A stretch of 64,000 nt of DNA, taken from positions 396,981 through 460,980 of the forward strand of contig DASTXL010000001.1 of assembly GCA_035758565.1 (NCBI GenBank), read 5' to 3'. Origin of the DNA: Candidatus Saccharimonadales bacterium (GTDB lineage: Bacteria > Patescibacteriota > Saccharimonadia > Saccharimonadales > UBA10212). Shown here piece by piece: positions 842-38,900 of this stretch. Each line of letters opens with the position of its first letter. The stretch's first letter is position 1. The notes under the pieces are model-generated. The model did not search any database. It was not told where the DNA came from and worked only from the letters and a program-made list of their open reading frames with translations. Both the position numbers and the translations under genes were made by a program.

Positions 842-846
842 ATTGT

Positions 847-13006: not shown

Positions 13007-13018
13007 TTCGCAAGGAGG

Positions 13019-13158: not shown

Positions 13159-13168
13159 AACTTAGCTT

Positions 13169-13525: not shown

Positions 13526-13588
13526 CTAAGCATTAATAAAACTCCCTGGCTCTGATTATCCGGGGAGTTTTTATATACTGGAGAAGTA

Positions 13589-14635: not shown

Positions 14636-14638
14636 CCC

Positions 14639-16878: not shown

Positions 16879-16958
16879 TTATTATTCCTCTTACTCTTAT
16901 TTTAGCAGTCAGCCTGAATCAAAGCTGAAAAAATCTACTAAGATTTCGAAAGGGATTG

Positions 16959-19329: not shown

Positions 19330-19364
19330 TTCGCACGTTTAAGTATACCATTTGGCCCCCACCC

Positions 19365-20084: not shown

Positions 20085-20133
20085 ACAATATATACATTAG
20101 AATGATCCTCTGGCTCAGGGTTGGACTATTTTT

Positions 20134-20994
20134 TTATTCAAATCGTTTTACGATGTGCTCCAAGTCTTCATCGGACTTGAATTTAATAATCAGCTGTCCG
20201 CCTCGGGCAGTATGCTTAACCTGCACATCGGTATTCAATTTCTTACTCAAGGAGCGTGTTATTTCATTTTCGGAATCCGTTGTTTTTCTAGCCTTTTCTG
20301 AGTCCGCACCTTTTTTTGCCGCCACGGCAAACTGTTCAGCCTGACGAACCGTCCAGCTATTGTCAAGGATACAACGTAGTAATTCATCTTGTTTGGCTTT
20401 ATCGCTCCTCAGCGCCAGGATTGCGCGAGCATGACCTTCACTAATTCTACCTTGTCGCAAAGCCTCCATGGCCGCCTCTGGCAACTGAAGTAAACGAGCT
20501 AAATTACTTACTGTGCTGGGTGCTTTGCCTAGTTTTTCGGCTATTTGATCAAGTGCTAGATTAAATTGCTGTTGTAATTTATATACACTCATCGCCTGCT
20601 CGAGCGGCGATAAGTCAACTCTCTGAATATTTTCAATTAAAGAAAGCTCTATCTCTTCCAGTTCCTCAAGTGATCGCACTATTGCCGGCACATGAGTCAG
20701 CTTAGCCGCTTTAGCAGCTCGCCAGCGACGCTCTCCAGCTACTATTCTGTAACCATTTCCGGCCTTGGCATGTACTACTATTATGGGTTGTAGGACTCCG
20801 TGGCGCCTTATTGAGTCTGCTAATTCGCTAAGTGCCTCGTTATCAAACTGGCGCCTAGGTTGATCTGGATTTGGAAGAATATCCTGGATGAGTAGCTTTT
20901 GTACTCGTTCATTATCATCTTGAAGAATTGTTTTGTCTAAATCTTTGGGTATAAGGGAATCAAAGCCCTTGCCCAAGCCTGTTTGCCTTGCCAT
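20134..20994 (-). CDS. parB: chromosome partitioning protein ParB
   Basis: ParB N-terminal GERRWRAA motif and HTH; overlaps parA by 1 nt. Confidence 0.9.
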   Translation of the reverse strand: MARQTGLGKGFDSLIPKDLDKTILQDDNERVQKLLIQDILPNPDQPRRQFDNEALSELADSIRRHGVLQPIIVVHAKAGNGYRIVAGERRWRAAKAAKLTHVPAIVRSLEELEEIELSLIENIQRVDLSPLEQAMSVYKLQQQFNLALDQIAEKLGKAPSTVSNLARLLQLPEAAMEALRQGRISEGHARAILALRSDKAKQDELLRCILDNSWTVRQAEQFAVAAKKGADSEKARKTTDSENEITRSLSKKLNTDVQVKHTARGGQLIIKFKSDEDLEHIVKRFE

Positions 20995-21749
20995 TATGTT
21001 CTCGCCTCCACTTCTTTGGCTAACGCCTTATATGCCCTAGCACCTTTGCTCCATTTGTCATGCTCTAATATTGTTTTACCGTAACTGGGCGCTTCCGCTA
21101 AGCGTACGTTCCTAGGAATAACTGTTTTGAAAACTTTTTCGCCAAAGTGCTTTTCTAGTTCAGATTTAACTTGACTAGAAAGCCCGGTGCGACTGTCGTA
21201 CAAAGTCACCACTACGCCCAAAAGGTTCAAATTTGTGTTCAATGCCACATGAACCTGTTGAATAACCTCAAGTAGCTGCCCGAGGCCCTCGAGCGCATAG
21301 TATTCAGCTTGCACCGGAATCAAAACATCAGTAGCGGCCGTAAGGGCGTTAACCGTTAAAAGGCCTAAGGCCGGTGGGCAGTCTATAAGTATGTAGTCGT
21401 AGTCTAGATTGACCAATGCACGACGTAATTGCTGTTCTCTGTCGGCAATGCTAACCAGTTCAACCTCCGAGTTAGCAAGTTGAGCGTTTGTTGGCAATAA
21501 ATAAAGATTACTTTTACCTATCTTAATAATAGCCTGCTTAGCTTCGACTCTAGAAAACAGTACGTCGTACAATGTTGACTTAAGAGCTTGTTTCTCTATC
21601 CCTAACCCGCTGGTAGTATTGCCTTGAGGATCTAAGTCTACAACCAAAACTGAATGGTTTTTAGCCAGGTATGCCGCCAAATTAATGGTGCTGGTAGTTT
21701 TACCTACACCGCCTTTTTGATTTAGTACAGCAATGATGCTTTTAGCCAC
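20994..21749 (-). CDS. parA: chromosome partitioning ATPase ParA/Soj
   Basis: Deviant Walker A motif KGGVGKTT with full-length ParA similarity. Confidence 0.92.
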   Translation of the reverse strand: MAKSIIAVLNQKGGVGKTTSTINLAAYLAKNHSVLVVDLDPQGNTTSGLGIEKQALKSTLYDVLFSRVEAKQAIIKIGKSNLYLLPTNAQLANSEVELVSIADREQQLRRALVNLDYDYILIDCPPALGLLTVNALTAATDVLIPVQAEYYALEGLGQLLEVIQQVHVALNTNLNLLGVVVTLYDSRTGLSSQVKSELEKHFGEKVFKTVIPRNVRLAEAPSYGKTILEHDKWSKGARAYKALAKEVEART

Positions 21750-21827
21750 TTTTTATTTATACCCCTGTCAAACAATACCATAAGCGTATCACTTAGAGGT
21801 TAATCAGTAAATGGTTGAGTTTCTTTC

Positions 21828-24800
21828 CTAATTGCTTACCCAGCGTACGTAGCAGGTCAGATTATTGATGCCTATGGAAGCTCCGGAACTGGATGCTGTG
21901 ATATAGAGGTCGGGCTCCAAGTTGTCGGCATTGGTATAGCTACTTAAATCTTTCCAACCGGAGTCTTCAAAGACTTCTGAAGTTGGGTATGAATCTGTTG
22001 GGATAAATGTGGCAAAAGAGTTAATCCCGCTCATTGTACCGCCATTATTACTGGTATGAAAGGCCACACTCACCGTACCGTGAGCGCTGCCATTATCATA
22101 GGTGCTCATCATAAATCTGATCTGTGGATGCAAGCCGGCATTAGTTGGTCCACGCAGCGGCACTACCGGCAAACCTATGAATGTCCCTGCGGTGTTGCTG
22201 CCCAAACTTCGATTGGCATTACCCAGATAACTTGTGCCTTGCGTTATTATGCCCGTGTACGGCTGCTGATCCGATACCCATTTGCCATAGGTAGCGTCAT
22301 AAGTCAGCGTCAACATATCATAAGGACTGGAGCCTGCACGAATACGTACCTGGCGGCCATCATATAGATTGGTCGTCGGCAGTGTGGTAACTACGTCTAC
22401 GCCGGCCAAATTATTGTAAGCACCATTATCGCAGCCGCGGAACTGATTAGAACTGGAGTTATAGTAGATGCCTCCACTGGTACAACCGCCAGCAGGGTCG
22501 CCCGAAGTATTTTTAACCCCTAGAACCAGTATTACGGGCGTGGAGCTGGCCGAACCCAAATTAATCTGCATATTCGTGGTGTCAACCGTGAACAAATTAG
22601 TACCGCTGGCATTTTGGATCTGAAAAGCAGAAATGGAATCTGCGGCATTCTGGAACAGGGCTGAACCAGTACTACCCGACAGGCTAGCTACGGTAGAAAG
22701 ACTATTGGCTGCAGTTCCAAAAACAAGCCTACCTATCGCATGATTAGTTTGATTAGCCCAGTAAACATCATTGATGCTCGAGGTCATGTCGGCAAGGTTG
22801 CCAGAAGCCGTAATGAAGTTCGAGTTACTGCCTGTGCCGTCTAGGCTGGCACGGCCGATAGTCCCACTACTGTTGGTCCAGTAGAGGAAGGTGGGAGTAA
22901 CAGTTATGCCTTGTGGTGTGCCAACGGCGATAGCCACCAGGCTATTATTTGCACCCGTGCCGTCGAGATTAGCGCGGCCAAGAGAATGACTGTTAGTCCA
23001 GTAAATATGCGAGCTGTCTATGGCAACGTCCGTTATGTGCTCGCCTACAACACCCGAAATAAAGCTCTGGTTTACCCCGGTGCCATCAATATTGGCTCGA
23101 GCAACGGTATCGCCGTTATATTCTCCCCAGTAAATGTAGTTAGTATTAACGACTATGTTTTGCGGCACGCCAGATAACCCTGTTATAAAGCTACCGTTTG
23201 CACCGGTGCCGTCGAGGTTAGCGCGACCAATGGCGGTGCCCGTGGACCAGTAAATGTAGGTATTATCTACGGCCAAACCTACGGCTCCCGAGATGCCGGT
23301 TATAAACGATGTGTTTACCCCGGTGCCATCAATATTGGCTCGACCGATAGAATTAGTAGGAGCATTAATCCAGTAGATAAAGTTATTGTCCACCGCTACT
23401 CCAAAAGGTCCTGTTGGCGAGCTTACGCTCATGAAACTGGGGCTTAGGCCGTTTGTATTAGGCTTAGCGATCTGCAGATTGATATTGCCGCCATTGCCCG
23501 CCCCCGTACCTTGACCGCCTGCTAATATCAAGTTACTTCCGGCTACGTCGGCTCCGGCGCTGGCCGCCACCTGCAACATTCCGCTACCACCCGGGTTAGA
23601 TAGCAGCAATCCCCCTGCGCCAGACCCTACAGCCAGCGTGCCGTCAGTCTTCAAGGTGTTGCTAGCTGAGCGATACAGGTTAGTGTCCGTACCAAAACTT
23701 ATACCGCCAGTGGAGGTTGTGGTATTTGTTCCCACAACCAGCACGCTACCAGCGTCCGAAGTAGCGTTAACGGTTATTAAATTATTGGCCGAAGCATCTT
23801 GTACTTGAAGCGCGATAGGATTATTAATGCCTGTCTGCCATTGGTAAGTGGTCGAGTTGGCATTCCATATCATAGTGGGCAGCCCCGTAAGAAGAGACGT
23901 AGATAGATTAGTTAACGTAGGGTCGGTATTGCCGTAAGTGTTAAGGGTCGAGGCGTCCGCGGCACTCAAGGTTCCCTTTCCGGCAGCGAACCAGAATACA
24001 TCGCTATCGGTACTGCTATTGGCAATCGTAAAGCTTGATGAGTTGATGGTCGGCATGCCCGAGTAAGAAGTGGTACTGAATGCCGATCCGTTTACCGATA
24101 CGCCAATCTGCGAGCCTGTCCAGAAAGCCACCAAGGTGTAAAGATTAGTCTGAGTTATATCTACGTTACTTTTGAGCGCTAGTGCTGAATTGACGCCAAA
24201 ACGCACATCAGACGTAGGTCCGCCGCCGCCCCCATGAATACGGAGTAAGGCCTGGTTGGTACCATCAGTCCAGTTAAAGGTTGCTATGTCGCCCACTCTG
24301 CTGGCCGGCTGATCCATTCTAAAGCGTATAGCTATCCATCCTTGTGCTTGGTTGAGGAGGCTGGATGGGGCGGTGATATTACCGGCGGATCTAGTCTGAG
24401 TAGTACCATTGGTTTCTACGTAAGGTGTCGCGTATGGCCTTGCTTCAGCCTGGGCCCCGTCAATATAGAACGTAGTATTTTGCTGGACATCAGTTTCGAC
24501 ATATAAGCGGAAGGTGCCTGAGCCCAGAGGCGAAGAAGTAGTTAGAGTCAGCCTGGTCCAGCTGGTACTAGACAGCGTAACCGGGGAGCTTGTAATTACT
24601 GCTGTTGGTGTATTATCGGTCAGGCGCAGGCGCACCGTAGGACTGCCGGTGCTCGCTTTAGCCCAAACACTAACGGTATGGATTTGGTTACTTGATTGGA
24701 CAAAGGTAGTATAAGCCCCCTCATTGGCCGTGGAATTGCTGGTGACTATTTGGGCTGAACGCGAACCGAACTTTGCGATACTGGACGAGCTAACAGAAGA

Positions 24801-27800
24801 AGATACAGAGGTCCAGCCGCTGGTGCTGCTCTCGAATCCGCCGTTGGCCACCAGGTTGTTGACTGATTCCCACACCCCATAGCTACTGTCGCTGGTGATG
24901 CCGTCGTACGAGTGACCGGCCACATTAGTGGTGCTTGCTCCTTCGGCGCGCATGGCATCATTTATTTCACTGCCGCTAGCCGTTAGATTAGCGCTCAATA
25001 CCGGACTAGAGAAGTTGTCTTTTATGGCTAGAGTAGCAATCGGGCTGCTGGTGCCGATGCCTATCTTGCTATTTATAGTGTCCGCTACCAGAAGGTTGGA
25101 CGTACCGGCGGCATTTTGTACCTGAAATGCGCTCATTGAATCAGCGGCGTTTTGGAATAGTGCCGATGTATTGGCAGTCAAAGAACTGCCAGAAGAACTC
25201 ACGTTCAATAGGTTTGAGCCGGCAGCGTTTTTAACCTGAAAGGCGTTGGTGTTATCTGTAGCGTTTTGGAATAGTGCCGAGCCGTTGACACCAGAGATAG
25301 TGGCGACAGTAGAGAGAGAATTGGCTCCGCTGCCAAAACTGTAGCGACCAACAGTAAGCAAGCTTGAGTTAGTCCAGTAGAGGAATGAACTATCCACGGC
25401 CACGCCTCCCGTATTAGATCCAGTGATGTAGCTGGTATTTATGCTGGACCCATCAAGGTTGGCACGGCCGATATTTCCCCCACTTACCGACCAATAAAGA
25501 TGACCACTGTCGACAGCGACCTCTGCAGAAGCAGTGTTCGCGCCTGTCATAAAACTCTGATTAACGCCGGTGCCATCTAAATTGGCACGGCCGATATTAC
25601 CTGGGAGAGAAGTAGCGGCAAAAGTCCAATAGACATGTGAGCCGTCAACTGCTATTCCGTATCCGGCTTGGCTGATGCTAGTAACCAGGGCCTGCACGTT
25701 CGTGCCGTCCAAGTTAGCACGACCGATGGCGAATGCGCCTTGAGCGTCGGTGAAGTAGATATAATTACTGTCTACCGCTATGCCTCTTATAGCAGCACCC
25801 TGCCCGGTTATAAAACTATTGTTAACACCTGTGCCATCCACATTAGCGCGGCCGATGGAGCCGCCCCCTATTGTCCAGTAAACATAGTTATTATTAGCTG
25901 CTAAAGCAACTATGCTGCCAGAAGTTATAAAATTCGGGTTAGCATTAGTGCCATCCAGGTTGGCACGGCCGATCTTAGTGCCGCTATTTACCCAGAAGAT
26001 GTAATTATTGTTTACAGCTACTTGTCCCGCGGAACTCAGCCCGGTAATAAAGCTCTGGCTAGGTACGTTAACTGATGGTTTAGCAATTTGCAAATTAATG
26101 TTACCGCCATTGCCAATCCCGGTGCCCGCGCCACCGGCTAATATCAAGCTACTACCGGCTACATCAGCTCCAACAGCTGTCGCCGCCTGCAGCGTACCAG
26201 CGTTGCTGGCTCCGCCAGCAAGAATCAAGTTGCCCGCGCCATTACGGTAAAGTTGCGTATCTGTGCCAAAGGTTACGCCGCCAGCAGAGGTTGTCGTGTT
26301 AGTGCCAATTGTCAGCAACGAACTAGTCGGAACCGCTCCTATGCCTATGCGAGTATTTTGAGTATCAGCGACAAATAGATTACTGTTCCCTGCCTGATTC
26401 TGAATTTGGAAAGCCGTGGTGCTGTCGGTAGCATTTTGGAACAGCACATTGCCGCGAGCTCCAACCGTAGCTACACTTTGACCGCTATCGCCAGCTACCA
26501 GATCAAACAAGTCAGCAGTTTGACCAGAGGCGCCGCGGATAGTGGCAACAACATGATTGTTGGCATCTGACTGAATAGCGAAATTAGCAGTCTGCAAAGA
26601 GGTAGAATTTTGAATATAGTTGCCACTGCCGGCTCCCGGTGTACAGCCACCAGCTGAACAAATTATATTTCCACCCACGCGAATGGCCGTTGTTGAGTTA
26701 ATGTCGCCCCCGACATCTAGCGTATAGGTTGGTGGCGTTGGCATGGCTATGGCCACCCTGTCATTCACAGTATCACCGCCTATGAGATGCGAGGTACCGG
26801 CAGCATTTTGCACCCAGAAAGCGTTGGTCGAATCTGTGCCTGGCTGAATTAATACGTTGCCTGTTGGCCCAACCGAAAAGACTGTGTCGTTAAAGCCGTC
26901 GTTAACCTGGAAAATATTAGCGATTTGTCCAGACGCACCCTTTACTAGCCCAGCGACAGAGTTAACATCGGCGCTTTGAACAGCAAAGTTCGCGCTCTGT
27001 ACCGAGGTTCTGTTTTGGATATAACTGCCCGATCCCGAGGCGGCCGTACAACCAGCACCCGAGCACAATGCAACACCGTTAATCCTTATTGAACCTCCAG
27101 CAGTTACATTGATGTCGCCGTTAACATCCAAGGTGTAATTAGCGCTTGTTTGATTTATAGCCACCCGCCGGTTTGAGGTATCTACTAAGAACAGCGCTGT
27201 GGTGCCGGCGGAGTTCTGAATCTGAAAAGTGTTGGTAGAATCAGCGCCAGGTTTAAATAGGTTATTGTTAGAATTTTTTAAAGTAACGTTCGAGCTCAGG
27301 CGAGCATCAGGTAGCGTGCCGGATGAAATATTGCCAGCATTTAGTGCAAGTAACGCTGAACCATTTAGTGCCGGCAAAATGCCACTTGGCCCTAGTTGAA
27401 CAAGTTGCAGTGCACCATTGAAGCTATTGCCAGCCTGGGTAACATTTGGGCTGAGCTGGGTTGACGAGGAAACTATATTCGGAGCATTGAGTTTACCATT
27501 GATAGTAACCGTACCTGTCTTGGTGTCAACATTTATAAGGCTTGTGCCAGAAGCGTCTTGGACAGTAAAGGCCTTGGTTGAATCGGTGTCATTTTTAAAG
27601 GCCACCGGTCCAGACGCGGTTAGCTTTTTGCCGTTAGCGATCTTAGTGTCGATGCCAAAGGTTACAGACTCAGCGCTCACATCGCCGAGCGTATTAGATG
27701 ATGGCTCTTGATTATTGACCTGTGATTGTGGGGTATTTGTATGGCGATTCATAACGAATAATGTAGTGGCGGCGCAAACTAAGACTATTAGGCCAACCAC

Positions 27801-28118
27801 TAAGAAAGATCGCTTCGGTATTCCTGGCGCCCAACTTATCTTTTTGGACTGTGCAACCGGCGGCTCAGGTGCCACAGCATAAATAGACTCATTAAGAGTC
27901 GGCGCAGCTGGGCTAGGTACCATGCCCTGCGTAGCGAGAGTTGGCGCGGCTTCTAGCGAGCCTATTTCGGGTACACCTGGAGTTATAACGCTATTAGGCG
28001 TTTGAGTAAGCTGAGATGTACTGGCAATAGCCGGTGCTTTAGTCACGGCAGAAGTACTGTTTTGAACAGGGGTAGGCTGGATAGAACTAATAGGAGTCGG
28101 CTGCTGCTCTGGATTCAT
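21828..28118 (-). CDS. giant membrane-anchored surface protein (2096 aa)
   Basis: Pro/Ser/Thr-rich N-terminus with one TM (about aa 100-125). About 13 copies of an ALFQNAADSxxAFQIQNAAGTxLLxADTxNxRIGIG-type repeat. A ConA/LamG-like jelly-roll (about aa 1060-1400). Two YWTD-type six-bladed beta-propellers with YWT...IGRANLDGTGxN.SFITG...VAVD blades (about nt 25346-26051 and 22721-23441). A Cys-containing C-terminal domain (GGCTSGGIYYN...RGCDNGAYN) is shared with the 4696-aa paralog. Strong AGGAG ribosome-binding site. Confidence 0.85.
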   Translation of the reverse strand: MNPEQQPTPISSIQPTPVQNSTSAVTKAPAIASTSQLTQTPNSVITPGVPEIGSLEAAPTLATQGMVPSPAAPTLNESIYAVAPEPPVAQSKKISWAPGIPKRSFLVVGLIVLVCAATTLFVMNRHTNTPQSQVNNQEPSSNTLGDVSAESVTFGIDTKIANGKKLTASGPVAFKNDTDSTKAFTVQDASGTSLINVDTKTGTVTINGKLNAPNIVSSSTQLSPNVTQAGNSFNGALQLVQLGPSGILPALNGSALLALNAGNISSGTLPDARLSSNVTLKNSNNNLFKPGADSTNTFQIQNSAGTTALFLVDTSNRRVAINQTSANYTLDVNGDINVTAGGSIRINGVALCSGAGCTAASGSGSYIQNRTSVQSANFAVQSADVNSVAGLVKGASGQIANIFQVNDGFNDTVFSVGPTGNVLIQPGTDSTNAFWVQNAAGTSHLIGGDTVNDRVAIAMPTPPTYTLDVGGDINSTTAIRVGGNIICSAGGCTPGAGSGNYIQNSTSLQTANFAIQSDANNHVVATIRGASGQTADLFDLVAGDSGQSVATVGARGNVLFQNATDSTTAFQIQNQAGNSNLFVADTQNTRIGIGAVPTSSLLTIGTNTTTSAGGVTFGTDTQLYRNGAGNLILAGGASNAGTLQAATAVGADVAGSSLILAGGAGTGIGNGGNINLQIAKPSVNVPSQSFITGLSSAGQVAVNNNYIFWVNSGTKIGRANLDGTNANPNFITSGSIVALAANNNYVYWTIGGGSIGRANVDGTGVNNSFITGQGAAIRGIAVDSNYIYFTDAQGAFAIGRANLDGTNVQALVTSISQAGYGIAVDGSHVYWTFAATSLPGNIGRANLDGTGVNQSFMTGANTASAEVAVDSGHLYWSVSGGNIGRANLDGSSINTSYITGSNTGGVAVDSSFLYWTNSSLLTVGRYSFGSGANSLSTVATISGVNGSALFQNATDNTNAFQVKNAAGSNLLNVSSSGSSLTANTSALFQNAADSMSAFQVQNAAGTSNLLVADTINSKIGIGTSSPIATLAIKDNFSSPVLSANLTASGSEINDAMRAEGASTTNVAGHSYDGITSDSSYGVWESVNNLVANGGFESSTSGWTSVSSSVSSSSIAKFGSRSAQIVTSNSTANEGAYTTFVQSSNQIHTVSVWAKASTGSPTVRLRLTDNTPTAVITSSPVTLSSTSWTRLTLTTSSPLGSGTFRLYVETDVQQNTTFYIDGAQAEARPYATPYVETNGTTQTRSAGNITAPSSLLNQAQGWIAIRFRMDQPASRVGDIATFNWTDGTNQALLRIHGGGGGPTSDVRFGVNSALALKSNVDITQTNLYTLVAFWTGSQIGVSVNGSAFSTTSYSGMPTINSSSFTIANSSTDSDVFWFAAGKGTLSAADASTLNTYGNTDPTLTNLSTSLLTGLPTMIWNANSTTYQWQTGINNPIALQVQDASANNLITVNATSDAGSVLVVGTNTTTSTGGISFGTDTNLYRSASNTLKTDGTLAVGSGAGGLLLSNPGGSGMLQVAASAGADVAGSNLILAGGQGTGAGNGGNINLQIAKPNTNGLSPSFMSVSSPTGPFGVAVDNNFIYWINAPTNSIGRANIDGTGVNTSFITGISGAVGLAVDNTYIYWSTGTAIGRANLDGTGANGSFITGLSGVPQNIVVNTNYIYWGEYNGDTVARANIDGTGVNQSFISGVVGEHITDVAIDSSHIYWTNSHSLGRANLDGTGANNSLVAIAVGTPQGITVTPTFLYWTNSSGTIGRASLDGTGSNSNFITASGNLADMTSSINDVYWANQTNHAIGRLVFGTAANSLSTVASLSGSTGSALFQNAADSISAFQIQNASGTNLFTVDTTNMQINLGSASSTPVILVLGVKNTSGDPAGGCTSGGIYYNSSSNQFRGCDNGAYNNLAGVDVVTTLPTTNLYDGRQVRIRAGSSPYDMLTLTYDATYGKWVSDQQPYTGIITQGTSYLGNANRSLGSNTAGTFIGLPVVPLRGPTNAGLHPQIRFMMSTYDNGSAHGTVSVAFHTSNNGGTMSGINSFATFIPTDSYPTSEVFEDSGWKDLSSYTNADNLEPDLYITASSSGASIGINNLTCYVRWVSN

Positions 28119-28300
28119 CGCCTTGCTCCTGTAGTTATTAGACGCGGAACTCGCTCTACATGATGGGCTGCCTGTAGCCTAAAGTCATAGCCAGCCCTGG
28201 ATAGCCGTTTTCGGCATTTGGGCGAGCAGGTTTTAGCGTCTCGCCTGCCCTCGAAGAGACAGGCGCAGCCAGCGCAGATTTTTATCTTTTTTGACGCCAT
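28115..28300 (-). CDS. small Cys-rich protein (61 aa; putative zinc-ribbon), translationally coupled to the 2096-aa giant gene
   Basis: Motif CAGCAC...(x10)...CSPKC. Its stop TGA overlaps the giant gene ATG in an ATGA arrangement. A-rich leader with no Shine-Dalgarno sequence. Local GC is higher than the surroundings. Confidence 0.35.
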   Translation of the reverse strand: MASKKIKICAGCACLFEGRRDAKTCSPKCRKRLSRAGYDFRLQAAHHVERVPRLITTGARR

Positions 28301-28337
28301 TTTTGTTTTTGTTTTAAGCCTTTTTGTTTTAATTGGG

Positions 28338-28381
28338 CTTAAGCTTAATTATTCGCTAAAAATGTGACCTCGTCAAGAGAA
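28338..28381 (-). promoter_or_regulatory. candidate promoter (TTGACG, 17-nt spacer, AATAAT on the minus strand) embedded in two direct repeats of GTCACATTTTT spaced 23 nt apart
   Basis: Plus-strand AAAAATGTGAC at 28348-28358 and 28371-28381. One copy lies in the -35/-10 spacer and one is upstream of the -35 box. Confidence 0.35.
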
Positions 28382-28414
28382 AAAATGTGACTTTGTGCCT
28401 AAAATTAATCAGTT

Positions 28415-31400
28415 TTAGTACTTGATAATGTAGTTAAGGGTCAAGTACGCCCCGGTATCTGTTGGCACATTAGTCTGAGGACCAACCGTTACAGTAGTGT
28501 TAGTTGTTGTGGTAGTGACTGTATTAACACCGAAGCTTGAGGTCGGCCAGTTGTTACCGCCGCTGCCGCCCTGGAAACCGCTGCCTGCTCCGTTATAAAC
28601 TACGGCATTTCCACTCACCGGACTGGTTACCGTAGACGTAGAGTTGGAGGTCGATGTAGAAACAGCTGAGGCGCTGCCTTTGTGGTAAGGGGTTCGGCTA
28701 CCAACCACTACACCCTCGTTGTTGCCTAGAGCGGTTACGTCAGTACGCCCAACCTCGGCTGGGTTCAGTCCAACGGCGGTTCGGCCGCGCAGATCAGGTA
28801 GGTTAAAGGTGGTCGAACCATCACCAACACCATAGGTCGTGCCGATAACGGCAAATAGCGCGGCATAAGTCGTTCGCGACACGGCTGACCCATCGGCAAC
28901 CAGATATCCCATTGGAGCAGTCAAACCAGCATAAGCTTGTATTGTCCCCGCTGGCGTCCCAGCCATCGAAAAGTCATTCCAACTACCATTAGCACAGCCA
29001 CGGAAGGTATTAGATGTTGAATTATAGTAAGTTGCGCCATTTTTACAGGTTGGATCGCTGGTTTTGATACCCATCACCAGCAAACCGTTACCGTCGAGTG
29101 TAAAGTTACCGCTGCTATCCAGAGAGGCCTGCAGAACCCCGTTGGTATAAAAGTCCATCAGATTAGAGCCGGCATCCTGGATTTTCAGGCTGTCAGACGG
29201 TCCAAAGCTCAAGAAATTACCGCCAGCAATCCTAATAGAGCCGTTAACATCCAACTTTTGGCCCGGAGTGGATGTTCCTATGCCTACCCGGCCATTAGCC
29301 GTATCAACGTCTAAGACCGTGCTGGAATTGGAATCCTGAACCTGAAAAGCAGTAGTGGAGTTAATACTGCTTTGGAGCAAGAAGTTGGAATTGGTTTGCA
29401 GAGTGTTGGCGGAGCCACGGTACAAACTAGCGTCGTCCAAGGTCAAGGCGCTTTGAACCACGGTGCCGGTGCTGGAACTATAGGTGGAAGTTGAGCCGTT
29501 CCAGACCATTGTCGGTACAGCTGCACCGGAGTTCATGGTGGTTAGGCTGCTTAGGGCTGGATCAGTATTACCATAACTGTTAAGAGTGGCGGCATCGGGG
29601 TTGGATAAAGTGCCCGTACCGCCGACAAACCACAGGAAGTCGCCATCTGCCCAGCGGGCGTTAGCCACGGAGCCAATATCGAATAATGAATTCATGGCGC
29701 CGAAAGCAGCAGCGGGAGTTTGGTTGGTATTAACGAAGTTCCCTCCATTTACAGAAACATCTACGGCAGAGCCGGTCCAGTAAAATACCAGCGTAAATAC
29801 TGTTCCTTTTGAGAACGGGCCGACCGTCACCGCAGCGTTTGAACCCGTATCGTGAGTACGGGTTATGGCAAGCCCGTTAGTGTTGTTAAAGTAAGCCGTT
29901 ATACCGTGACCGCTACCATCTTCCCAATCGAACAAATGGGCCTCGCCGTTAAGGAAGTTACCAATATCAGTGCTGGCCACATCCGTGCGGAACCTCATAG
30001 CTACCCAGCCCGTGGTACTGCTACCAATAGCTGCAGACGGAGCTCGGATGCGGGCTGCGCTGCGGCTTGAAGTGGTAAATGGCGTCGCATAAGCTTTTTG
30101 CTCCATTTGGATTCCATCTAACCAAGCAGTGACAGACGAACCGGTGTTTTGGATATTTCTAAAGAAAACTTTTCCGCTAGCTGCATTTGAAGGACTGGTA
30201 CAGCCGCCACTAAACCTCTGCCAATCTGTTGATGAGGTCCATTGATTACCGCCACAGGTATTTATAACTGATCCGGTGCCATTAGTTCCTGTGTACCAAT
30301 CTATAGAAAATCCGACGGTAATAGCAGCGCTTGTCTTAGTCCATTCCGAAATCGTGTAAATGGTACTGGGACTTACGTTAACATTCGTCTGGTATAAATT
30401 GTGCCAGTTATTATCACTAGCTACAGAAGCGCTTAAGCTCTGGGTCCCAAACTTAGCCGTGCTGGTATCGTTCCCCGTGCTTTCAAAGCTCGGGTCGCTA
30501 AACATATTTGTTGTAGCCTCCCAAACACCGGTGCTGCTATCCGGTGGAGTCACGCCATCGCCTTGGGTGTTGGTGCGGCGGGTAGCATCGGTAATTTCGT
30601 TGCCCGACATGGTTAGGCCGGTAGAAGATAGTAGGTTCCAGCTTAGCTGAGCACTGGCCGTACCGGAAGCGCTGCCAACGGTACTGGTGGCCTGAAGCTG
30701 GGTGGTAGAGACTTTGAAGTTAGTGGTATCAGCCGTCAGCAGGTTGAGCCCATTAGCGTTCTGGATTTGGAGAGCGGTGGTGGAATTGGTAGCGGTCTGG
30801 AACAAATTAGCATTACCGGTAGCCCACAAACTGCTTAGAGTCTTAAGCGAGCCACCAACCCCGTAAAGTTCGTCGCCCGCGCCAAAGTATACTCCGGTGG
30901 CGCTACTGGTAGCAGCCGCAAAGCTTACGCGACTATTGCTCGTATTTACATTAAAGATATTAGCGCCGCTGGCATTTTGTATCTGGAAAGCATTAGCAGA
31001 GTCGGCTGTGTTCTTAAACATAGCCGTGCCGTTTCCGGTCAGATTGCCAGCTACTACTAAGTTGCCGTCGGTCTTTAAAGTACTATTGGCTGAGCGGTAC
31101 AGGTTGGCGTCGCCGCCTATCAAAATGGCACTGGAACTCACGGTGGCATCGGGCAATAGTATCTGTCCGGTAATGGTATCGGCGGTCAGCAATGGTTGGG
31201 CCGAAGCGTTTTGGATCTGGAAAAAGGTGTGCGATCCGGCAGAAGAATCTTTAAACAGGGCCTGGCCCTGGTTGCCAATGCTGGTGACTACGGCGCCGCT
31301 GCCGTCTTTCAGTTCCAAAAGGTCCGCTGTTTGCCCGCTCTTACCCTTTAATATGCCCACCACGTTGCTGGCCGAGACAGATTCTATGTTAAAGTTAGCG

Positions 31401-32989
31401 TCGCTCTGCAAACTTATTCCGTTTTGGATATAGTTGCCAGAACCGCTGGCCGCCGTGCATCCCCCCGCAGTACAAAGCGTAGAGCCGTTTATCTCATAGT
31501 TACCGGTAATATTTACATTGCCCTGGGGATCTAGCGCATAAACCGTGCTGCCTGTGGAATCTTTACCCTCAAACAAATCGGCAGTCTGGCCACTGGCGCC
31601 CTGGATTATGCCACCAACATCGGTAGCGTCGGCAGAACGGATGTTAAAATTGGCGTCCGCTTGCTGAGTCGTAGTGTTATTGACGTAATACGACGAACCG
31701 GAAGCCGGATTACAGAGCCCGCCAGAACACACATCGGTTCCGTCAATTCGGAACGTGTGGCCGGCGCTAACGTTCACGTCTCCGTTCACGTCCAGCGTGT
31801 AATTAGGCGTGGCCACACCTATGCCGATGCGAGTATTTACGGTGTCGGCTATTAGCAAGTTATCATTACCGGCAGCATCTTGGATCTGAAAAGCGTTAGT
31901 GGCGTTTGTGGCTGATTTAAATATGTTATTGCCAGTAAAAATGTTGTTGGCGTCCAGGAGCGCCACATTGGTGCTTAACCTGTTATCGTTTACCGTACCG
32001 CTTGTTATGTTGCCGGCGTTCAACGCGCTCAATCCTGATCCATCACCGACAAAAGTATTGCCAGCCGCCGTGAATGAATTAATTCCACTGAATGTTTGGT
32101 CGGTGTTTAGACGAGCTATGTTGCCCGAAAGCAGGCTGTCACTTAGCGTTCCCGCGCTCAAATTAGACACATTGGCGTAATAGCTGGCACCGTGTCCCCC
32201 TAGGGTCGCCGCATCACCGGTAAAGGCGAGGCCTTGGGGCTTACAGCCGCTAGCCGTACACACTAACACGGAATTTATAATTAACCCCGAGTTGCTTAAT
32301 TCAGTAGCGCCGCCACCCGAGCTAACAGAGCCAGTTGCCGAGATATCGCCGCCAACTTGCAAGGCAGCGTTGCCAGTTGGAGTGGCGCCAATTCCCACCC
32401 TGCCGTTTTGAGTATCGGCCACCAGCAAATTGGCACCAGCAGCGTTTTGAATTTTGAAGGCAGTCAGGCTATCGGCAGCGTTTTGGATAATAACCGGGCC
32501 GGTGGCGGTGAATGTTTTGCCGTTGGCAATTTTAGTATCTATGCCGAAGGTTACAGATTCCTCACTGATGTCAGCCAGCTGATTCGGGCCGGAGCCGGTT
32601 GAGGCTTGGTTGTTAACCGGCACGTTTGTTCTTGGCCGGTTCATAATATAGAAGGTTCCCGCAGCCAGTGCCAGGATTACTAAAGCTACACCTAGCCATG
32701 ATTTTTTAGACGGGCGCAGCATTTCACGAACCGGAGGACCGGCGAACGGCGGTTGGCTAGGAGGCGAAAAGTCTGGCTGATTAATTAGTGGTTCTGCTGG
32801 AGCGGCGGCGACTCCAGAGATGGGCGGCGAAGCCGTTTCCAGCGAAGAAGCTGTTACCGTTTCAGAGCTCGCAGTCGGTGGAACTAGCGACGGATCTAAA
32901 GGAGTGGTTGGCGGACTTGAAAACATAGTAGCAATACCGCTTGGTGCGGTTGGTTGCGGCTGGGTTAGGTTTTTGTTTTGGTCGTCCAT
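28415..32989 (-). CDS. giant membrane-anchored surface protein (1524 aa) with a C-terminal phage tail-collar (tail-fibre-like) domain
   Basis: Low-complexity N-terminus plus one TM. Shares the FGIDTKIANGK module and the AFQIQNAAG repeats with its neighbours. Has a jelly-roll domain (WVAMRFRTD...). The C-terminus reads YLVADGSAVSRTTYAALFAVIGTTYGVGDGSTTFNLPDLRGR, the hallmark of the phage tail-collar domain (about nt 28640-28850), and is preceded by the YYNSTSNTFRGCANGSWN motif. Confidence 0.85.
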   Translation of the reverse strand: MDDQNKNLTQPQPTAPSGIATMFSSPPTTPLDPSLVPPTASSETVTASSLETASPPISGVAAAPAEPLINQPDFSPPSQPPFAGPPVREMLRPSKKSWLGVALVILALAAGTFYIMNRPRTNVPVNNQASTGSGPNQLADISEESVTFGIDTKIANGKTFTATGPVIIQNAADSLTAFKIQNAAGANLLVADTQNGRVGIGATPTGNAALQVGGDISATGSVSSGGGATELSNSGLIINSVLVCTASGCKPQGLAFTGDAATLGGHGASYYANVSNLSAGTLSDSLLSGNIARLNTDQTFSGINSFTAAGNTFVGDGSGLSALNAGNITSGTVNDNRLSTNVALLDANNIFTGNNIFKSATNATNAFQIQDAAGNDNLLIADTVNTRIGIGVATPNYTLDVNGDVNVSAGHTFRIDGTDVCSGGLCNPASGSSYYVNNTTTQQADANFNIRSADATDVGGIIQGASGQTADLFEGKDSTGSTVYALDPQGNVNITGNYEINGSTLCTAGGCTAASGSGNYIQNGISLQSDANFNIESVSASNVVGILKGKSGQTADLLELKDGSGAVVTSIGNQGQALFKDSSAGSHTFFQIQNASAQPLLTADTITGQILLPDATVSSSAILIGGDANLYRSANSTLKTDGNLVVAGNLTGNGTAMFKNTADSANAFQIQNASGANIFNVNTSNSRVSFAAATSSATGVYFGAGDELYGVGGSLKTLSSLWATGNANLFQTATNSTTALQIQNANGLNLLTADTTNFKVSTTQLQATSTVGSASGTASAQLSWNLLSSTGLTMSGNEITDATRRTNTQGDGVTPPDSSTGVWEATTNMFSDPSFESTGNDTSTAKFGTQSLSASVASDNNWHNLYQTNVNVSPSTIYTISEWTKTSAAITVGFSIDWYTGTNGTGSVINTCGGNQWTSSTDWQRFSGGCTSPSNAASGKVFFRNIQNTGSSVTAWLDGIQMEQKAYATPFTTSSRSAARIRAPSAAIGSSTTGWVAMRFRTDVASTDIGNFLNGEAHLFDWEDGSGHGITAYFNNTNGLAITRTHDTGSNAAVTVGPFSKGTVFTLVFYWTGSAVDVSVNGGNFVNTNQTPAAAFGAMNSLFDIGSVANARWADGDFLWFVGGTGTLSNPDAATLNSYGNTDPALSSLTTMNSGAAVPTMVWNGSTSTYSSSTGTVVQSALTLDDASLYRGSANTLQTNSNFLLQSSINSTTAFQVQDSNSSTVLDVDTANGRVGIGTSTPGQKLDVNGSIRIAGGNFLSFGPSDSLKIQDAGSNLMDFYTNGVLQASLDSSGNFTLDGNGLLVMGIKTSDPTCKNGATYYNSTSNTFRGCANGSWNDFSMAGTPAGTIQAYAGLTAPMGYLVADGSAVSRTTYAALFAVIGTTYGVGDGSTTFNLPDLRGRTAVGLNPAEVGRTDVTALGNNEGVVVGSRTPYHKGSASAVSTSTSNSTSTVTSPVSGNAVVYNGAGSGFQGGSGGNNWPTSSFGVNTVTTTTTNTTVTVGPQTNVPTDTGAYLTLNYIIKY

Positions 32990-32997
32990 TCTTATTC

Positions 32998-35900
32998 TTA
33001 CTGGCTACGCCACCTAACCATCGCACCTAGATTTTCATAGGTGGCATTAACGCTGGCTGTATTGTACTCAACAGATAGTTCACATTCGGCATTTGCGGGA
33101 GCGCCGCTATAAGTGGCGTCTGTCCAATTGGCGATCTGGTAGACGTTGTTGGCAAACACGCTAACCGACGGACCGGTAGCCCACAACGACCCGTAAGGCG
33201 AGGCACTGCTTCCACCGTGGGTATACAAAGAAGCCCGTATATAAGTAGTGGTCCCAGTTCCACTAGAGTTCATATAGCCGGATACGTATATCTGTGGGCG
33301 AAGGCCGGCATTGTATAGAGACATACAATTTGACAGCGGCATGGCACCATATGGCGACCACGCGCTACTGTTTAGGGTCGTAGCTGAAGGCAATTCGTTA
33401 ATTGTTGCGTCGGCTTCAGAGTACCAATGGCCCTGAGCGGCATCATACGTCAGTTTAAGGTAGTCTGCCGGAGCGCTAACTTTTAGGTATACAGTTTCAC
33501 CATCGTGCAGGTTAGTTGTTGGAATGGTTGTTACTATATCTATGCCGTTCAGGCTGTTCCAGGCACCGTTCGCGCAGCCCCTTATTTGATAGCTGGTCGT
33601 ATTGTAGTAGAGCCCACCGTTGGTACAGCCTGGATCACTAGTGGAGGCTCCCAATACTACCGTGCCGCTAACCGCTAAGTTGCCGGCAACGCTAACGTTA
33701 CCGGTCGGACCTACGTTGAACAATATTGAACCGCTGCTATTTTTAACGTCCAGGATGTCAGCTGATTGACTGGTGGCGCCTTGCAGAACCATGGTCGGAT
33801 TGCTGGCGCTACTGGATTGAATATTAATATTCCCTGTTTGAGTCGTCGTGCCGTTGTTTATTCCACTGCCGCCCTGCAAGCTTGGGTTAGCAAGGGTAAC
33901 GCGAATGTAGCCAGGGACATAGTTCCCAGAGCCACCATTACCGCCCTGAACCGTGGCATTAGATACTGCTTCATATGCCCGAATTGAAAACGTATGCGCC
34001 CCCGCCGACGGTGTAATCTCGCGACTTTCCATTATTCCCGTGAAGGTTAAGGCGCCCACATTGTTAGATATGATGGTTTGGCCCATCTTGCCAATAGACG
34101 ATCCGTCTTCGTAAAGCACAAATGTTAATGAAGGATAAGCAGCATTATTAAAGTCTATTTCGGGAGTATAGAACTCGATCATATAGGGAGTAGCTCCGTC
34201 AGCCGTGAAAGATGACGCGGTGACTACAGTGTTGGCAGTTGACTCGGAAGTGGCACTGATTGTTACTGGCGAAGTGAATTGGTTGTAAGCCAATTGATAG
34301 TTACTGCCGCTTGTTTGACTGCTGGTGCCGGACCCGCCGCCGGAGCCACCGTTAGAATCTATCTTCCAGCTTGGGTTACTACTCAGGTCAGGACCCCCGT
34401 CGTATATAGGCGCCGACTGTATCACGCTTACACCAGAACCGCCAAGCACGTATGCAGCATTGCCAGCGATGAATGCCGGTGATAGATAAGAACTGCTCGG
34501 CAGACTATCAGTCGCTGCCCACAACAAAGGATTGTTGATTGGAGCTTCCTGAACGGTCGTTCCAGCCATCAGATAAATATGGTCACCCACTATTAATATA
34601 GTGGCGTTCTGCATATTGGTGTTTAATGTGTAGCCGGTAGATACCCATGAGGTCGGTGAACTAATTGCCGCGCGGTAGATATTGCGCATCGGGCCGCCGC
34701 CGTTATTGCCACCAAACATGTAAACATAGTTGCCAATGACGGCTAGTTGGCTGAAGAATATATTGAATCCGAGCGTACCGGCTGAACTCCAGCTAGTAGG
34801 TGAGCTGATGCTAGCAGTATAGATTACATTGCCCGCCGTATTCACCGCGCTGGCCCCACCGAACAGATATATATTGCTGCCGATGATCGCCAATTGAGAG
34901 TTTACAAGGTTGCCAGGCAAAGTTCCGGCGGCTGTTTGCCAACTATTAATCGGGTCAGAGACCGGCGCGTAATAAATCACGTTGGTTGCCGCCGATCCAT
35001 TATAGCCGCCGAATAGATACACGTAGCTACCTACTACTGCTACTTGGGACTCTTCCAGCGCACCCGGCAATTTAGCGCCTTGGTCAGTCCATGATGTCGG
35101 GTTAGACACAGGAGCCGTATATACATGCTGCGAAGTAGAACCGCCTACATTACCACCGAATAGGTAGATGGTGTTGCCAATAGTGGCTACCTGGCCGCCA
35201 TACATATTAGCCGGCAATGTCCCGGCATTGGTCCAGTCGCTTTCCATTAGGCCGTAGCCGGCGCCAGACCCCGAACCACCGGCGCCGTTACCCGGATTTA
35301 ATCGGACCCAGACGGTACCGTTAGAGCCGGCAGTCTTAGCGCTCATGGCCTGGCCGATTATTCCACCACTTGGGTAGGCAGAATCAGTGGCTTTACCAGC
35401 AGTACCACTAGTTACCAGATAGTCGCCTACGTTCACCGCAGCTGTATCGACGTTGACCTGGTAAATACCGCTGATAGCAATTGGCTGGCTCTGCCCGGCG
35501 CTCATCGTTTTAGTGGCTACGCCAAATACTTTGGTCGAGTTAGCAAGAGTCGTAGTGGTCACCTGCCCAGCATTGTTGGTATCTATTACCACCACGTCGT
35601 TAGCATTTACGCTGGTAGTTACTGTTTCGTTGACGGTCATTATCTGGCTGGCGTTGCCAGAATTATTGAAGCCAATAGCGCCAGTTATGCCTAAATTGCC
35701 ATTAGCATCTACGCTCAGCAAATTTGAACCGCTGCTATTACGGACATCAAGAATATCCGCGCTTTGACTAGATGCACCTTGAATTATCGCAGTCGGGTTG
35801 TTGCCGCTTGCAGACTGGATGTTGAAGTTAGCGGTTTGAGTGGTGGTACCATTGTTGATCCCGCTGCCACCTTGGATTTGAGGATTGGCGAGAACTACTC

Positions 35901-38900
35901 GAATATAGCCCGGCACAAATGTAGTGCCGCCAGTGCCACCGGGACCAGCCTCTACCGTACCGTTGGCGTTAATTCGCCATGCCCGAATAGAAAATGTATG
36001 AGCGCCAGCAGTCGGCGTAAGTCTGCGCGTTACGTGTACAGGATCATAGCCTTGCATATTTGCCCCGCTATATACTTGTCCAAATATGTCGCCTATGGAA
36101 CTGCCGTCTTCATAAAGCGAAACAATTGTATGCCCATCGGCGCCAGCATCTACTCTAGGCGCGAAGAATTCAACTACTACAGGTGTATTGCCGTCTGAAC
36201 TAATAGATGTAGCCGTGACTACTGTATTAGCGGTTGAAGCAGATGTAGCCGACACGGTCACAGGAGCCGTAAATTCGCTATAGGCAAGCTCTGTATTGTT
36301 ATTTGCTGTTTGGCTGCTGGTGCCGGACCCGCCAGTACCGACGTTAGAATCGGTTATCCAGCTTGGGTTAGAGCTAACATCCGGCGAGCCATTGATTATC
36401 GGTGCCGAATAAATCTTATTGCTGTACGCCGTCCCAGTGTAACCGCCCCAAACGTATAGGGCATTTCCAACAATTGATACTCTGCTATCTACAAGCACGC
36501 CATTCATATAAGCGGTTGTTGCCCAGCCCCATACCGGATCAGTAACCGGAGCTCTAAAGATTACTGACACATATCCTCCGTTATAGCCACCCAGAAGATA
36601 TACATAGTTTCCAACGATGGCAAGCGAGGAATTATCCAAACCTGACCCGGTACCCGCATTAGGAATAGTGCCACCGCTATTAACCCACGATGTAGGACTA
36701 CTTATAGGAGCACGGTAGATGGTGTTCAGAGTGGAGCTACCATTAGCTCCGGCAAACAGGTAGACGTAGTTACCGATGACGGCTAAGTTGGAGTCGCCTA
36801 TACCACTAGACGCAGGCGCTATGCTACCAGCCGTACTCCAGCTTAGTGGGTTAGACACAGATGCCGTGTATATTGTGTTAATGTAGCCAGTACCGGTGTG
36901 ATAACCACCAAACAAATATATATTGCTGCCAATTATCGCAAGAGAGCTGCTCGTCAAACTAGTGGACAAGCTGCCAGCTAGCGTCCAGCTACCTACTGGA
37001 TCGGAAACATTCGCTGAATATATATTGGCCGTAGACGCGCCAGCTATCGCGCCGCCGAAGAGATAAATCTTGCTGCCGATAATTGCTAATTGCGAAGAGT
37101 AAAGATTAGCACCGGAAGGCAGGTTGCCAACAGCGGTCCAGCTGGTTGGATTACTTACGGGGGCCCTCATTATAGTTGTAACGCCAGCGCCAGCGCCAGT
37201 CGCGCCGCCAAACATATAGACGTAGTTACCAATGGTTGCTGGAGCACCCTCTACTAGCCCTGGTGCCACTGGCAGTGTTGCCCCGGTATCAATAAAGTCA
37301 CTTTCCATTAGCCCGTAACCGCTGCCAGATCCGGAACCGCCGGCGCCGTTGCCGGGGTTGATTCGGGCCCAAACCGTGCCGTTAGAACCAGCAGCTTTAG
37401 CGCTCAAAGCTTGGCCGATTACGCCGCCACTAGGCGAGCTAGAAGAAGTTGCCATGCCGGTAGTTGAAGAAGTTACGAGATAATCGCCGATATTAACCGC
37501 GGCCGTGTCTACATTAACTTGATAAATACCGCTTACAATAATCGGTTGGCTAACTCCTGCTGAATTTGTAGTCGTAGCTACACCGAATACTTTAGTACTA
37601 TTGGCCGTCGTACTATCTGTTACCTGGCCGGCAGTTGTTGTATCTACAACTACAACATCCCCGGCCGTAACACTGCTAGTTACGACCATATTAAGGCTTA
37701 TACCCTGGTTCTGATTGCCAATGTTGCTAAAGCCAATTGTGCCGCCAACGTTCAAGTTGCCAGCCACGAATGTGTTGCCGTTTGGATCGACGGAAAGCAG
37801 GTTGATATTGCTAGAGTTCTGAACGTCCAGTATGTCGGCGCTCTGACCAGATGTACCGTGAATAGTTGCGGTAACGCTGCTGGGGCTTGCGCTTTGTATA
37901 TTAAAGTTTGCACCGATCTGCAAGGTAGTGCCGTTTTGTATACCCCCACCACCCTGCAAAGATGTTCCGTATTCGGTCACAATAATCACACCGCCGGCAC
38001 CGTACCCACCGGACAGCGACGAGCTAGAAATACCACCCGCGCCACCACCGCCACTACCATATGCGACGCCGGCACCGCCGGCAGTAGTGTAGTTCCCGCC
38101 GGCGCCACCGCCGCCAAAGTAACTAGCGCCACCATTGCCACCTGATTGACCAGTGTAGTTATATGCACCGTCATTTCCGGTGCCGCCAGTAACGTTAACG
38201 TCGCCCCCCGTACCTGTGCCACCCGTGCCTCCAGCAGGGGCAGTGCCGCCGCCGGCATCTGTGCCACCGGTGGCACTCAATGCGCCAAAGGCTGTTGTGC
38301 CACCGCTAGTATGAGCGCCACCGCCCCAAGGAGCACCGGCTGCTCCCACTGCATAAGAGTAGCTGGAGCTTGGGCTTGATATAAACTTACGGACGTAACC
38401 ACCAGCACCACCACCACCGCCAGAACCATATTGATTTCCAAGACCACCACCACCGCCACCACCAACAAGTTCAACCTGCAAAGATGTTACGCCCGCCGGC
38501 AGATTAAACGTTCCAGAGCCCGATGTATAAGTTTGAACACCCACAATACCAGATCCACCACTGCCACTTCCACCGGAGTTAGAACCTCCTATGCCATAGA
38601 TTACAAGCCGGCTGCCAGCCTTGAAATTAGATCCGTTCATAGAAATAACCTGGATCCTATTGATTGCCGAGGTACTAGTCCATGTATCCGACCACGTGGA
38701 GCCATCAAGGCTGGCCGCAGTGTAGGCAACGTTAGAGCTATTAATAGCAGTGAATGATTTATGGAAAGAAGTTCCCGCGTAATTTGTGATGGTCGCCTCG
38801 GAACTTCCGGCGGCAAACGTGTTGTTTGACGCGCTGCTGCCAGGTAGCCAGCCGATAGAGGCTGAGCTCATCCCGGTATTAGCGGCACCGTTTACCGCTG

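Follow-up and report, generated by a model that had tools for sequence, protein, structure and literature searches.

The closest described system to the proteins reported here is the mosaic adhesive trimer (MAT) of Bdellovibrio bacteriovorus (Caulton et al. 2024, PMC10769870), with which we compare them by description. MAT fibres have conserved N-termini and S74 or other tips (TNF-like, lectin), are displayed on the cell surface, and include one that binds prey glycans (PMC10769870); this phage-like mosaic fibre principle has so far been shown experimentally for Bdellovibrio only. A PilV-Collar fusion has been described as a shufflon adhesin (Milman et al. 2023, PMC9881135). The means by which ultrasmall Patescibacteria locate and attach to bacterial hosts are described as largely unknown (PMC12206443); the epibiotic growth of Saccharibacteria needs several envelope adhesins, and so far nothing beyond type IV pili and a few proteins with lectin domains has been implicated (PMC10633639). 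We analysed a 64,000-nucleotide (nt) stretch of the genome of a Candidatus Saccharimonadales bacterium (GenBank assembly GCA_035758565.1, contig DASTXL010000001.1, positions 396,981 to 460,980 of the forward strand; hereafter the window), which encodes protein A, a mosaic fibre protein of 1524 residues with a membrane anchor and a Collar/MdpB tip. Our analysis suggests that A is a chromosomal mosaic surface fibre, analogous to MAT, that recognises and attaches to the host cell or to another surface glycan or protein, a reading that we favour without regarding it as secure.

Gene A (28415..32989; like every feature located below, unless stated otherwise, on the minus strand) is an uninterrupted open reading frame (ORF). 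Its protein is identical to P0121 from another assembly (100% identity over 1503 residues) and 83% identical to the near-ortholog P0122 in their best local alignment, which spans 20% of A. A Pfam-A search of A returns a sole family, PF07484 ('Phage Tail Collar Domain'), at residues 1348-1404 (28778..28948; E=2.2e-23; 82.4 bits versus a cutoff of 24; profile positions 1-56 of 57), a genuine match that lies well outside what chance would give. Two PHROGs profiles, 'tail protein' and 'tail collar protein', match A over the Collar stretch, and a phmmer search of the Protein Data Bank (PDB) with full-length A returns a single match, of the Collar to the long tail fibre of cyanophage A-1(L) (8kec). 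A preliminary reading of the DNA made from its letters and ORFs (the sequence-only reading) had placed a tail-collar domain at the C-terminus of this protein, and both the domain and the peptide quoted for it are present; the interval given, 28415-28900, covers the C-terminal 161 residues but misses ~16 residues at the start of the Pfam domain. The Pfam and PHROG searches of A gave no match beyond the Collar region, and NCBIfam assigned neither A nor its paralog B to any family.

The functional tip unit of A exceeds the Pfam domain and comprises residues ~1305-1524 (28415..29077). In particular, the last ~185 residues of A constitute a full-length member of the MdpB/COG4675 family, for which a structure has been solved (Bizionia argentinensis C24, PDB 6ov6), and contain both the MdpB core motif YAG..AP.G(W/Y)L..DGSAVSRTTYA.LF..IGT.YG.GDGSTTFNLPDLRGR and the terminal motif AYL.LNYIIK. 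The full MdpB-type module in A consists of the Collar core, a hypervariable insert rich in Ser, Thr, Gly and Asn (residues 1405-1500, 28490..28777, delimited by comparison with relatives), and a C-terminal closing strand containing NYIIKY (residues 1501-1524, 28418..28489, delimited by consensus match and by the predicted local distance difference test score, pLDDT). The strand ends in PTDTGAYLTLNYIIKY, which aligns with the family consensus P.D.PAYLV.NYIIKT obtained from 97 homologs. Typical MdpB proteins stand alone, have 150-420 residues, and carry at least one HxH motif, whereas in A the module sits on a 1300-residue anchored stalk, to which it is joined by a Cys loop, and HxH has been lost: A contains none of these metal-binding motifs, which T4 gp12 and gp37 and most MdpB proteins have in the insert, and reads PYHKGS at the consensus PKHxHT. 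At least one HxH is present in 95 of the 98 aligned sequences; the motif is typical of the MdpB family and not strictly defining.

Identities of the tip parts, taken from seven Collar-tipped Saccharibacteria relatives of A, reveal a conserved frame around a variable element. Specifically, the relatives are 73-94% identical in the Collar core and 67-96% identical in the closing strand; the insert of A is 21-39% identical to its counterparts, with the exception of that in the near-ortholog P0122 (78%), and insert length differs widely, being shortest in P0168 and longest in P0124. The insert of P0124 (L002, 4160-8401) contains tandem peptide repeats, with VVQPTISTPSIN occurring several times and SGGSASLASAPIA three times, which suggests that the length of the distal tip varies in this protein through repeat expansion. 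In an AlphaFold2 monomer model of the A tip, the core has pLDDT values above 90, the closing strand ~90-93, and the insert mostly 50-66. The best Foldseek matches of the tip in the PDB are 8kec, 2xgf (T4 gp37 tip), 6ov6 (Bizionia C24), and 1ocy (T4 gp12), and all of the solved Collar-module structures that were matched have been deposited as multi-chain fibres or trimers. The Collar fold is common to A and to the phage tips T4 gp12 (1ocy/5lye), T4 gp37 needle (2xgf), and cyanophage A-1(L) fibre (8kec), and A, like them, has a variable distal part between conserved collar strands. A conserved frame around a hypervariable distal element corresponds, by analogy, to the layout of phage receptor-binding tips, and the hypervariable insert, not the Pfam Collar core, is probably the specificity determinant of A. 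The phage tips are virion parts, encoded in tail modules, attached to baseplates, and equipped with His-metal sites, whereas A is membrane-anchored, chromosomal, and without HxH.

The remainder of A is an N-terminal anchor followed by a long stalk. A Pro/Ser/Thr/Ala-rich tail (residues 1-96, 32702..32989), read from the sequence and aligning with the N-terminus of paralog B from residue 10, is presumed from the predicted topology to be cytoplasmic. It precedes a signal-anchor or transmembrane segment (residues 97-119, WLGVALVILALAAGTFYIM, 32633..32701), identified by hydrophobicity: the Kyte-Doolittle maximum over 19 residues is 2.15 at residue 98, and nothing elsewhere in A exceeds 1.6. This single hydrophobic segment bears out the membrane anchor proposed in the sequence-only reading, and an equivalent N-terminal segment is present in 102 of 123 family members. 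The proximal stalk (residues 120-790, 30620..32632) is built of 'tnAFQIQNaaG..ll.aDT.n.rVGIG' repeat units, with motifs at residues 178, 367, 590, and 668, and of small CxxGGC loops with Cys pairs at 244/249, 421/426, and 506/511; the DNA repeat families D4, D6, and D12 of the stalk also occur in paralogs B and C. The central region (residues ~791-1190, 29420..30619), of unrecognised fold, is common to A and B, as indicated by BLASTP (A 653-1188 versus B 945-1443, 33% identity, E=2e-43). The distal stalk unit (residues 1191-1304, 29078..29419) contains an FQVQD...RVGIG unit at residue 1215 and is 43-64% identical in the nearest Collar-tipped relatives. Pfam searches of the stalk, central region, and distal stalk of A and of the B tip gave nothing usable even at E<=5. 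Like trimeric autotransporter adhesins of the YadA type, A is a long, repetitive, and presumably trimeric surface fibre; unlike them, it has no C-terminal beta-barrel translocator and no Pfam match to YadA_anchor (PF03895), and is anchored at its N-terminus. We rejected a trimeric autotransporter identity for A, for which Pfam shows the Collar only, the C-terminus is a Collar strand, and a YadA-type anchor is absent.

A is one of three giant paralogs, A, B, and C, that are encoded in tandem on the minus strand. Paralog B (21828..28118, 2096 residues) shares the N-terminal tail, anchor, stalk, and central region with A, carries the same Cys loop and two DUF5050/YWTD propellers (Pfam and paralog alignment), and is identical to an NCBI protein from a metagenome-assembled genome (P0129, 'Candidatus Saccharimonadales bacterium'). 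Paralog C (32998..47088, 4696 residues) has Kelch and Phage_cement_2 repeats, the Cys loop, and a B-type tip (32998..33573). The loop in A (residues 1305-1342, SDPTCKNGATYYNSTSNTFRGCANGSWNDF, 28964..29077) conforms to the pattern SDPxC..G..YYN......RGC.NG.W, which is present in all three proteins (C1315/C1332 in A, C1879/C1896 in B, C4488/C4505 in C), in each case ~190-230 residues before the C-terminus. The homology of A to B and C ends directly after the loop; beyond it, B and C share a terminal domain of ~200 residues (34% identity over 291 residues, E=1e-37), which in B occupies residues ~1897-2096 (21828..22430). The sequence-only reading had attributed to the paralogs a different, Cys-containing terminal domain at the position of the Collar; the domain is indeed different and at the same position, but the Cys element is a junction loop found in all three proteins, A included.

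Among homologs the loop precedes at least four different tip types, and Collar-tipped relatives share 50-97% identity in it. Between the paralogs, the nucleotide sequences across the junction are only 60-73% identical, and the exchange of tips is therefore old. Recent recombination or gene conversion at the junction was considered and ruled out on the basis of that identity and of the absence of long near-identical repeats between the paralogs; we likewise found no near-identical repeat pair involving the A tip. Diversification of the tip by a diversity-generating retroelement, a mechanism common among CPR surface proteins, or by a shufflon was also considered and rejected, as no reverse transcriptase, recombinase or invertase, or inverted-repeat shufflon was found among the window ORFs tested. 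A would resemble the PilV-Collar adhesin in that a cellular appendage used for adhesion is tipped by a Collar linked to variable specificity; the PilV-Collar protein, however, is a tip adhesin of a type IV pilus that is diversified by programmed inversions, which lack a counterpart, in the form of a shufflon or recombinase, among these ORFs.

Two sets of internal repeats were observed in the paralogs. The propellers of B, of the DUF5050/LDL-receptor-YWTD type, arose through an internal duplication of ~2.5 kb, and C contains six internal repeats of ~2.06 kb, each encoding a Kelch beta-propeller and a Phage_cement_2 (head-decoration-like) domain, the latter being a second module of this island with a phage-derived name.

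Beyond the window, a search with full-length A retrieves 132 giant proteins, of which the named ones are all from Saccharibacteria or Patescibacteria. Over residues ~140-700, the stalk of A shares 31-59% identity with those of proteins whose tips are of the S74, YxYxVQQ, INLSYLSxF, or B type. Clustering of the last 170 residues of 123 family members yields at least ten tip classes: YxYxVQQ, a small beta domain (61 members, some of which also have a PF13884/S74 chaperone domain); INLSYLSxF (16 members); Collar (8 members); the B type (about 7 members); and several smaller classes. At least 13 homologs carry S74 (PF13884), and some family members carry YadA-head repeats (PF05658); JGI labels some homologs as trimeric-autotransporter-like. 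These comparisons indicate that Saccharibacteria encode mosaic giants with a common anchor and stalk and interchangeable tips. The proposal of a swappable cassette in the sequence-only reading accordingly holds at the level of the family, with at least ten tip classes on homologous stalks, but the swapping is ancient, and orthologs at the locus keep the Collar tip.

The family resembles MAT in being cellular, chromosomally encoded, and related to phage tail fibres, in having a conserved proximal end and a variable C-terminal tip, in combining S74 tips with non-S74 tips on homologous stalks, and in occurring as many paralogs per genome in an organism living on other bacteria. An intertwined trimeric beta-prism/beta-helix fibre on the cell surface, as in MAT, is presumed for the A family. 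The differences are as follows. MAT proteins have a signal peptide and a conserved beta-rich N-domain of ~130 residues and reside on a Gram-negative outer surface, whereas the A family has an N-terminal membrane anchor and belongs to a Patescibacterium; the A family is far larger (1.5-4.7 thousand residues) and contains propellers and lectin-like inserts; and the MAT set includes TNF-like jelly-rolls, whereas the B-type tip has only weak fold matches to jelly-rolls and TNF-like lectins. The main text of the MAT paper (PMC10769870) does not contain the word 'collar', and no Collar/MdpB tip is mentioned there. In the literature searched, we found no description of anchored Saccharibacteria giants with swappable phage-type tips, of a shared Cys-loop junction, or of a variable island between the genes for isoleucyl-tRNA synthetase (IleRS) and ParA, and nothing specific to Saccharibacteria or Patescibacteria on Collar proteins or tail fibres.

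The B-type terminal domain, which ends in RWVS, is rare, with 10 database matches. Its model is a jelly-roll (pLDDT 74.5; predicted template-modelling score 0.71) that weakly resembles trimeric TNF-like lectins and many phage minor-tail or uncharacterised proteins. One homolog, P0244 (365 residues; L085, 10001-11098), is encoded inside a siphophage tail module, with genes for a tail tube protein and for a 1139-residue protein on one side and a lysin-like gene (Rv2525c_GlyHyd-like) on the other; the 1139-residue protein is presumed from its size and position to be the tape measure. The tube protein of L085 is 42% identical to that of Thermoanaerobacterium phage THSA-485A and 27% identical to those of Arthrobacter phages. 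The B-type domain is also present on two IMG/VR viral contigs, and the alternative tip, like the Collar, therefore has phage relatives. Against cultured phages, a tblastn search with the B-type tip gave no match, and P0244 gave only a weak N-terminal match, to Thermoanaerobacterium phage THSA-485A.

An exact-sequence look-up of A returned no record, and one of ParB returned only a 7-kb Logan contig that carries no taxonomy. A contig scan with full-length A found no relative; related loci were found in a second scan, with ParA as the synteny anchor, and all of the close ParA loci are from Candidatus Saccharibacteria. In these genomes, a backbone consisting of the class II ribonucleotide reductase (RNR) gene, IleRS, a slot, ParA, ParB, signal peptidase, LytR, a 249-residue protein, and HtrA is conserved. 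In the window, four genes (~28 kb; compared interval 21750..49990) occupy the slot between IleRS and ParA; elsewhere the slot holds a single 943-residue protein with collagen, Cys-loop, and Collar parts in L003, a Collar protein of at least 1143 residues in the P0123 contig, giants with other tips in L009-L011, and nothing in L006-L008. The IleRS-ParA interval is a hypervariable slot, or island, in Saccharibacteria. Several genomes keep a Collar-tipped ortholog at the ParA locus, with stalks of differing length, and the Collar-tipped giants P0124 and P0134 are encoded at another conserved locus, adjoining another giant. The search of relatives for alternative C-terminal domains at the locus, suggested in the sequence-only reading, thus revealed differently tipped giants, or no giant at all, in other Saccharibacteria.

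Saccharibacteria are obligate epibionts. Because the observations on A and its relatives fit mosaic fibres, because MAT provides a precedent, and because the epibiotic lifestyle calls for adhesins, we regard recognition of a host or other surface as the best-supported mechanism. In the mechanism that we propose, the single N-terminal hydrophobic segment would direct Sec export of A and then be retained as the anchor in the cytoplasmic membrane. The ~1200 residues of repeat-rich beta stalk would project outward, probably as a homotrimer, since the matched Collar structures are multi-chain and homologs of the stalk end in an S74 trimerisation chaperone. The conserved two-Cys loop, which is observed directly, connects the stalk to the MdpB/Collar tip, in which the core and terminal strand frame the Ser/Thr-rich insert; the insert would form a distal face that probably sets ligand specificity. 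The variability of the insert is evident from the alignments; its binding role is assigned by analogy with T4 gp12 and gp37 and the cyanophage A-1(L) fibre. Surface exposure, binding, trimeric state, and adhesin function of A are likewise what we infer from its sequence.

Several points weigh against this mechanism. A is known from the sequence of an uncultured metagenome-assembled genome alone. The Foldseek matches have low TM-scores (0.27-0.33), a consequence of the intertwining of the matched fibres, and the stalk and central regions of A have no fold recognisable by Pfam at E<=5. The insert is of low complexity, poorly predicted, and without HxH, and might be a glycosylated or disordered spacer instead of a binding surface. 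We know of no established biochemical function of MdpB-type proteins outside phage. Finally, the slot is empty in three related Saccharibacteria, and the proteins are therefore dispensable for the lineage as a whole. With these points weighed, A remains a plausible host-attachment device, and anchored fibres with interchangeable phage-type tips in a variable island are concrete candidates for host-range determinants; if the reading is correct, phage-like mosaic fibres in cells that live on bacteria extend beyond Bdellovibrio to a second, unrelated lineage.

The most serious competing explanation, which we consider possible although unlikely, is that A is a surface protein that takes no part in host attachment but serves envelope architecture, mediates kin recognition or aggregation, or occupies the cell surface to shield it from phages or to act as their decoy. 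MdpB-type modules are extremely widespread in free-living, non-epibiotic bacteria, the Ser/Thr-rich insert of A resembles glycosylated spacers, the island is missing from some related genomes, and its genes adjoin the envelope-biogenesis genes for LytR, signal peptidase, and HtrA, all of which would fit such a role. However, diversification of ligand specificity has as its signature the combination seen here, tip swapping and a conserved frame around a hypervariable insert; the paralogs contain modules that resemble lectins (LamG, propellers, and a jelly-roll whose weak fold matches are TNF-lectin-like), and the nearest functional precedents are adhesins.

A second alternative concerns the origin of the tip: the Collar could be an ordinary, vertically inherited bacterial domain whose 'phage' label is an accident of naming, with no exchange with phages. 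The module is certainly common. The C-terminal 241 residues of A retrieve more than 7900 small proteins labelled by JGI as 'microcystin-dependent protein' (MdpB/COG4675), and 51,377 cluster representatives with the module come out of an exhaustive search with HMMER, many of them long cellular proteins; long metagenomic proteins (P0251, P0252, P0272, P0331, and others) contain 3, 6, or 11 tandem Collar/MdpB modules in up to 4832 residues, and sets of three modules could be single-chain pseudo-trimers. Since the module occurs in more than 50,000 clusters, in phages and in cells, a Collar outside phage is not surprising in itself and, as the MdpB family and the PilV-Collar fusion illustrate, is routine. 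The stable retention of Collar-tipped orthologs at the ParA locus in three genomes, and the location of a close homolog, P0055, in a cellular or conjugative-element setting, would also accord with vertical descent. Another close homolog, P0014, lies within a phage-like structural gene cluster, however, the S74 tips of the family are virus-linked (S74 being a phage tail-spike chaperone, PMC10769870), and homologs of the B-type tip occur in the siphophage tail module and on the IMG/VR contigs; such virus-linked relatives of several tips are hard to explain without repeated exchange, in either direction, which makes strictly vertical inheritance improbable. The presence of close relatives in both phage-like and cellular or mobile-element contexts is compatible with transfer in either direction, and the claim of the sequence-only reading that the module was recruited from a phage is not borne out by so widespread a distribution in phage-like and cellular contexts alike.

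A broader scheme, doubtful but worth stating, is that Saccharibacteria encode their own superfamily of membrane-anchored, MAT-like trimeric fibres whose Collar, S74, and jelly-roll tips share one pool with the receptor-binding proteins of phages that infect the Gram-positive hosts of the epibionts. The epibiont and the phage would then share host receptors, and the repertoire of tips at the IleRS-ParA locus would correspond to host range. The jelly-roll tip enters this scheme through its homologue in a siphophage tail module, the siphophage being a relative of phages that infect Gram-positive hosts.

That A is the tail fibre of a prophage or tailocin that happens to be chromosomal is almost certainly wrong: its Collar, PHROG tail-protein, and phage fibre structure matches and the Phage_cement_2-like domains of C would suit such an origin, but the ORFs tested across the 64 kb include no virion gene, structural gene module, or integrase, the N-terminus of A is a Pro/Ser-rich tail with a single membrane anchor and not a baseplate-attachment domain, proteins of 1524-4696 residues with propellers and lectin-like domains are unlike virion fibres, and the flanks (ParAB, IleRS, RNR, FtsZ) are housekeeping genes syntenic with those of other Saccharibacteria, so that the explanation is refuted for the window. 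Specifically, the search covered capsid, portal, terminase, tube, sheath, baseplate, integrase, and lysin genes, and the tested ORFs are housekeeping ones, in agreement with the earlier remark that no phage genes lie nearby. The giants are flanked on one side by ParA/ParB, signal peptidase, LytR, the conserved 249-residue protein, and HtrA and on the other by IleRS, class II RNR, NrdR, FtsZ, and FtsA; farther out in the window are aminoacyl-tRNA synthetases, RRF, EF-Ts, S2, L31, RF1, and PrmC. No tRNA genes and no Rfam families at the gathering threshold were found in the window (1..64000), which thus contains no integration landmarks of these kinds.

The fourth gene of the island, D (47351..49420, 689 residues), lies upstream of the giants; its product has an N-terminal anchor, three lectin-like domains of the LamG_3 family, and a weak match to the TafC fimbrial family, far below the TafC cutoff. 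The ORF for the 249-residue protein (16959..17708, minus strand) has no Pfam match and keeps its position between LytR and HtrA in three or more genomes of Saccharibacteria. The G+C content of the window peaks at 58% at 8001..10000, compared with ~47-50% elsewhere, over a 416-residue ORF on the plus strand (8591..9841), in which a match to CDP-alcohol phosphatidyltransferase is confined to the C-terminal half.

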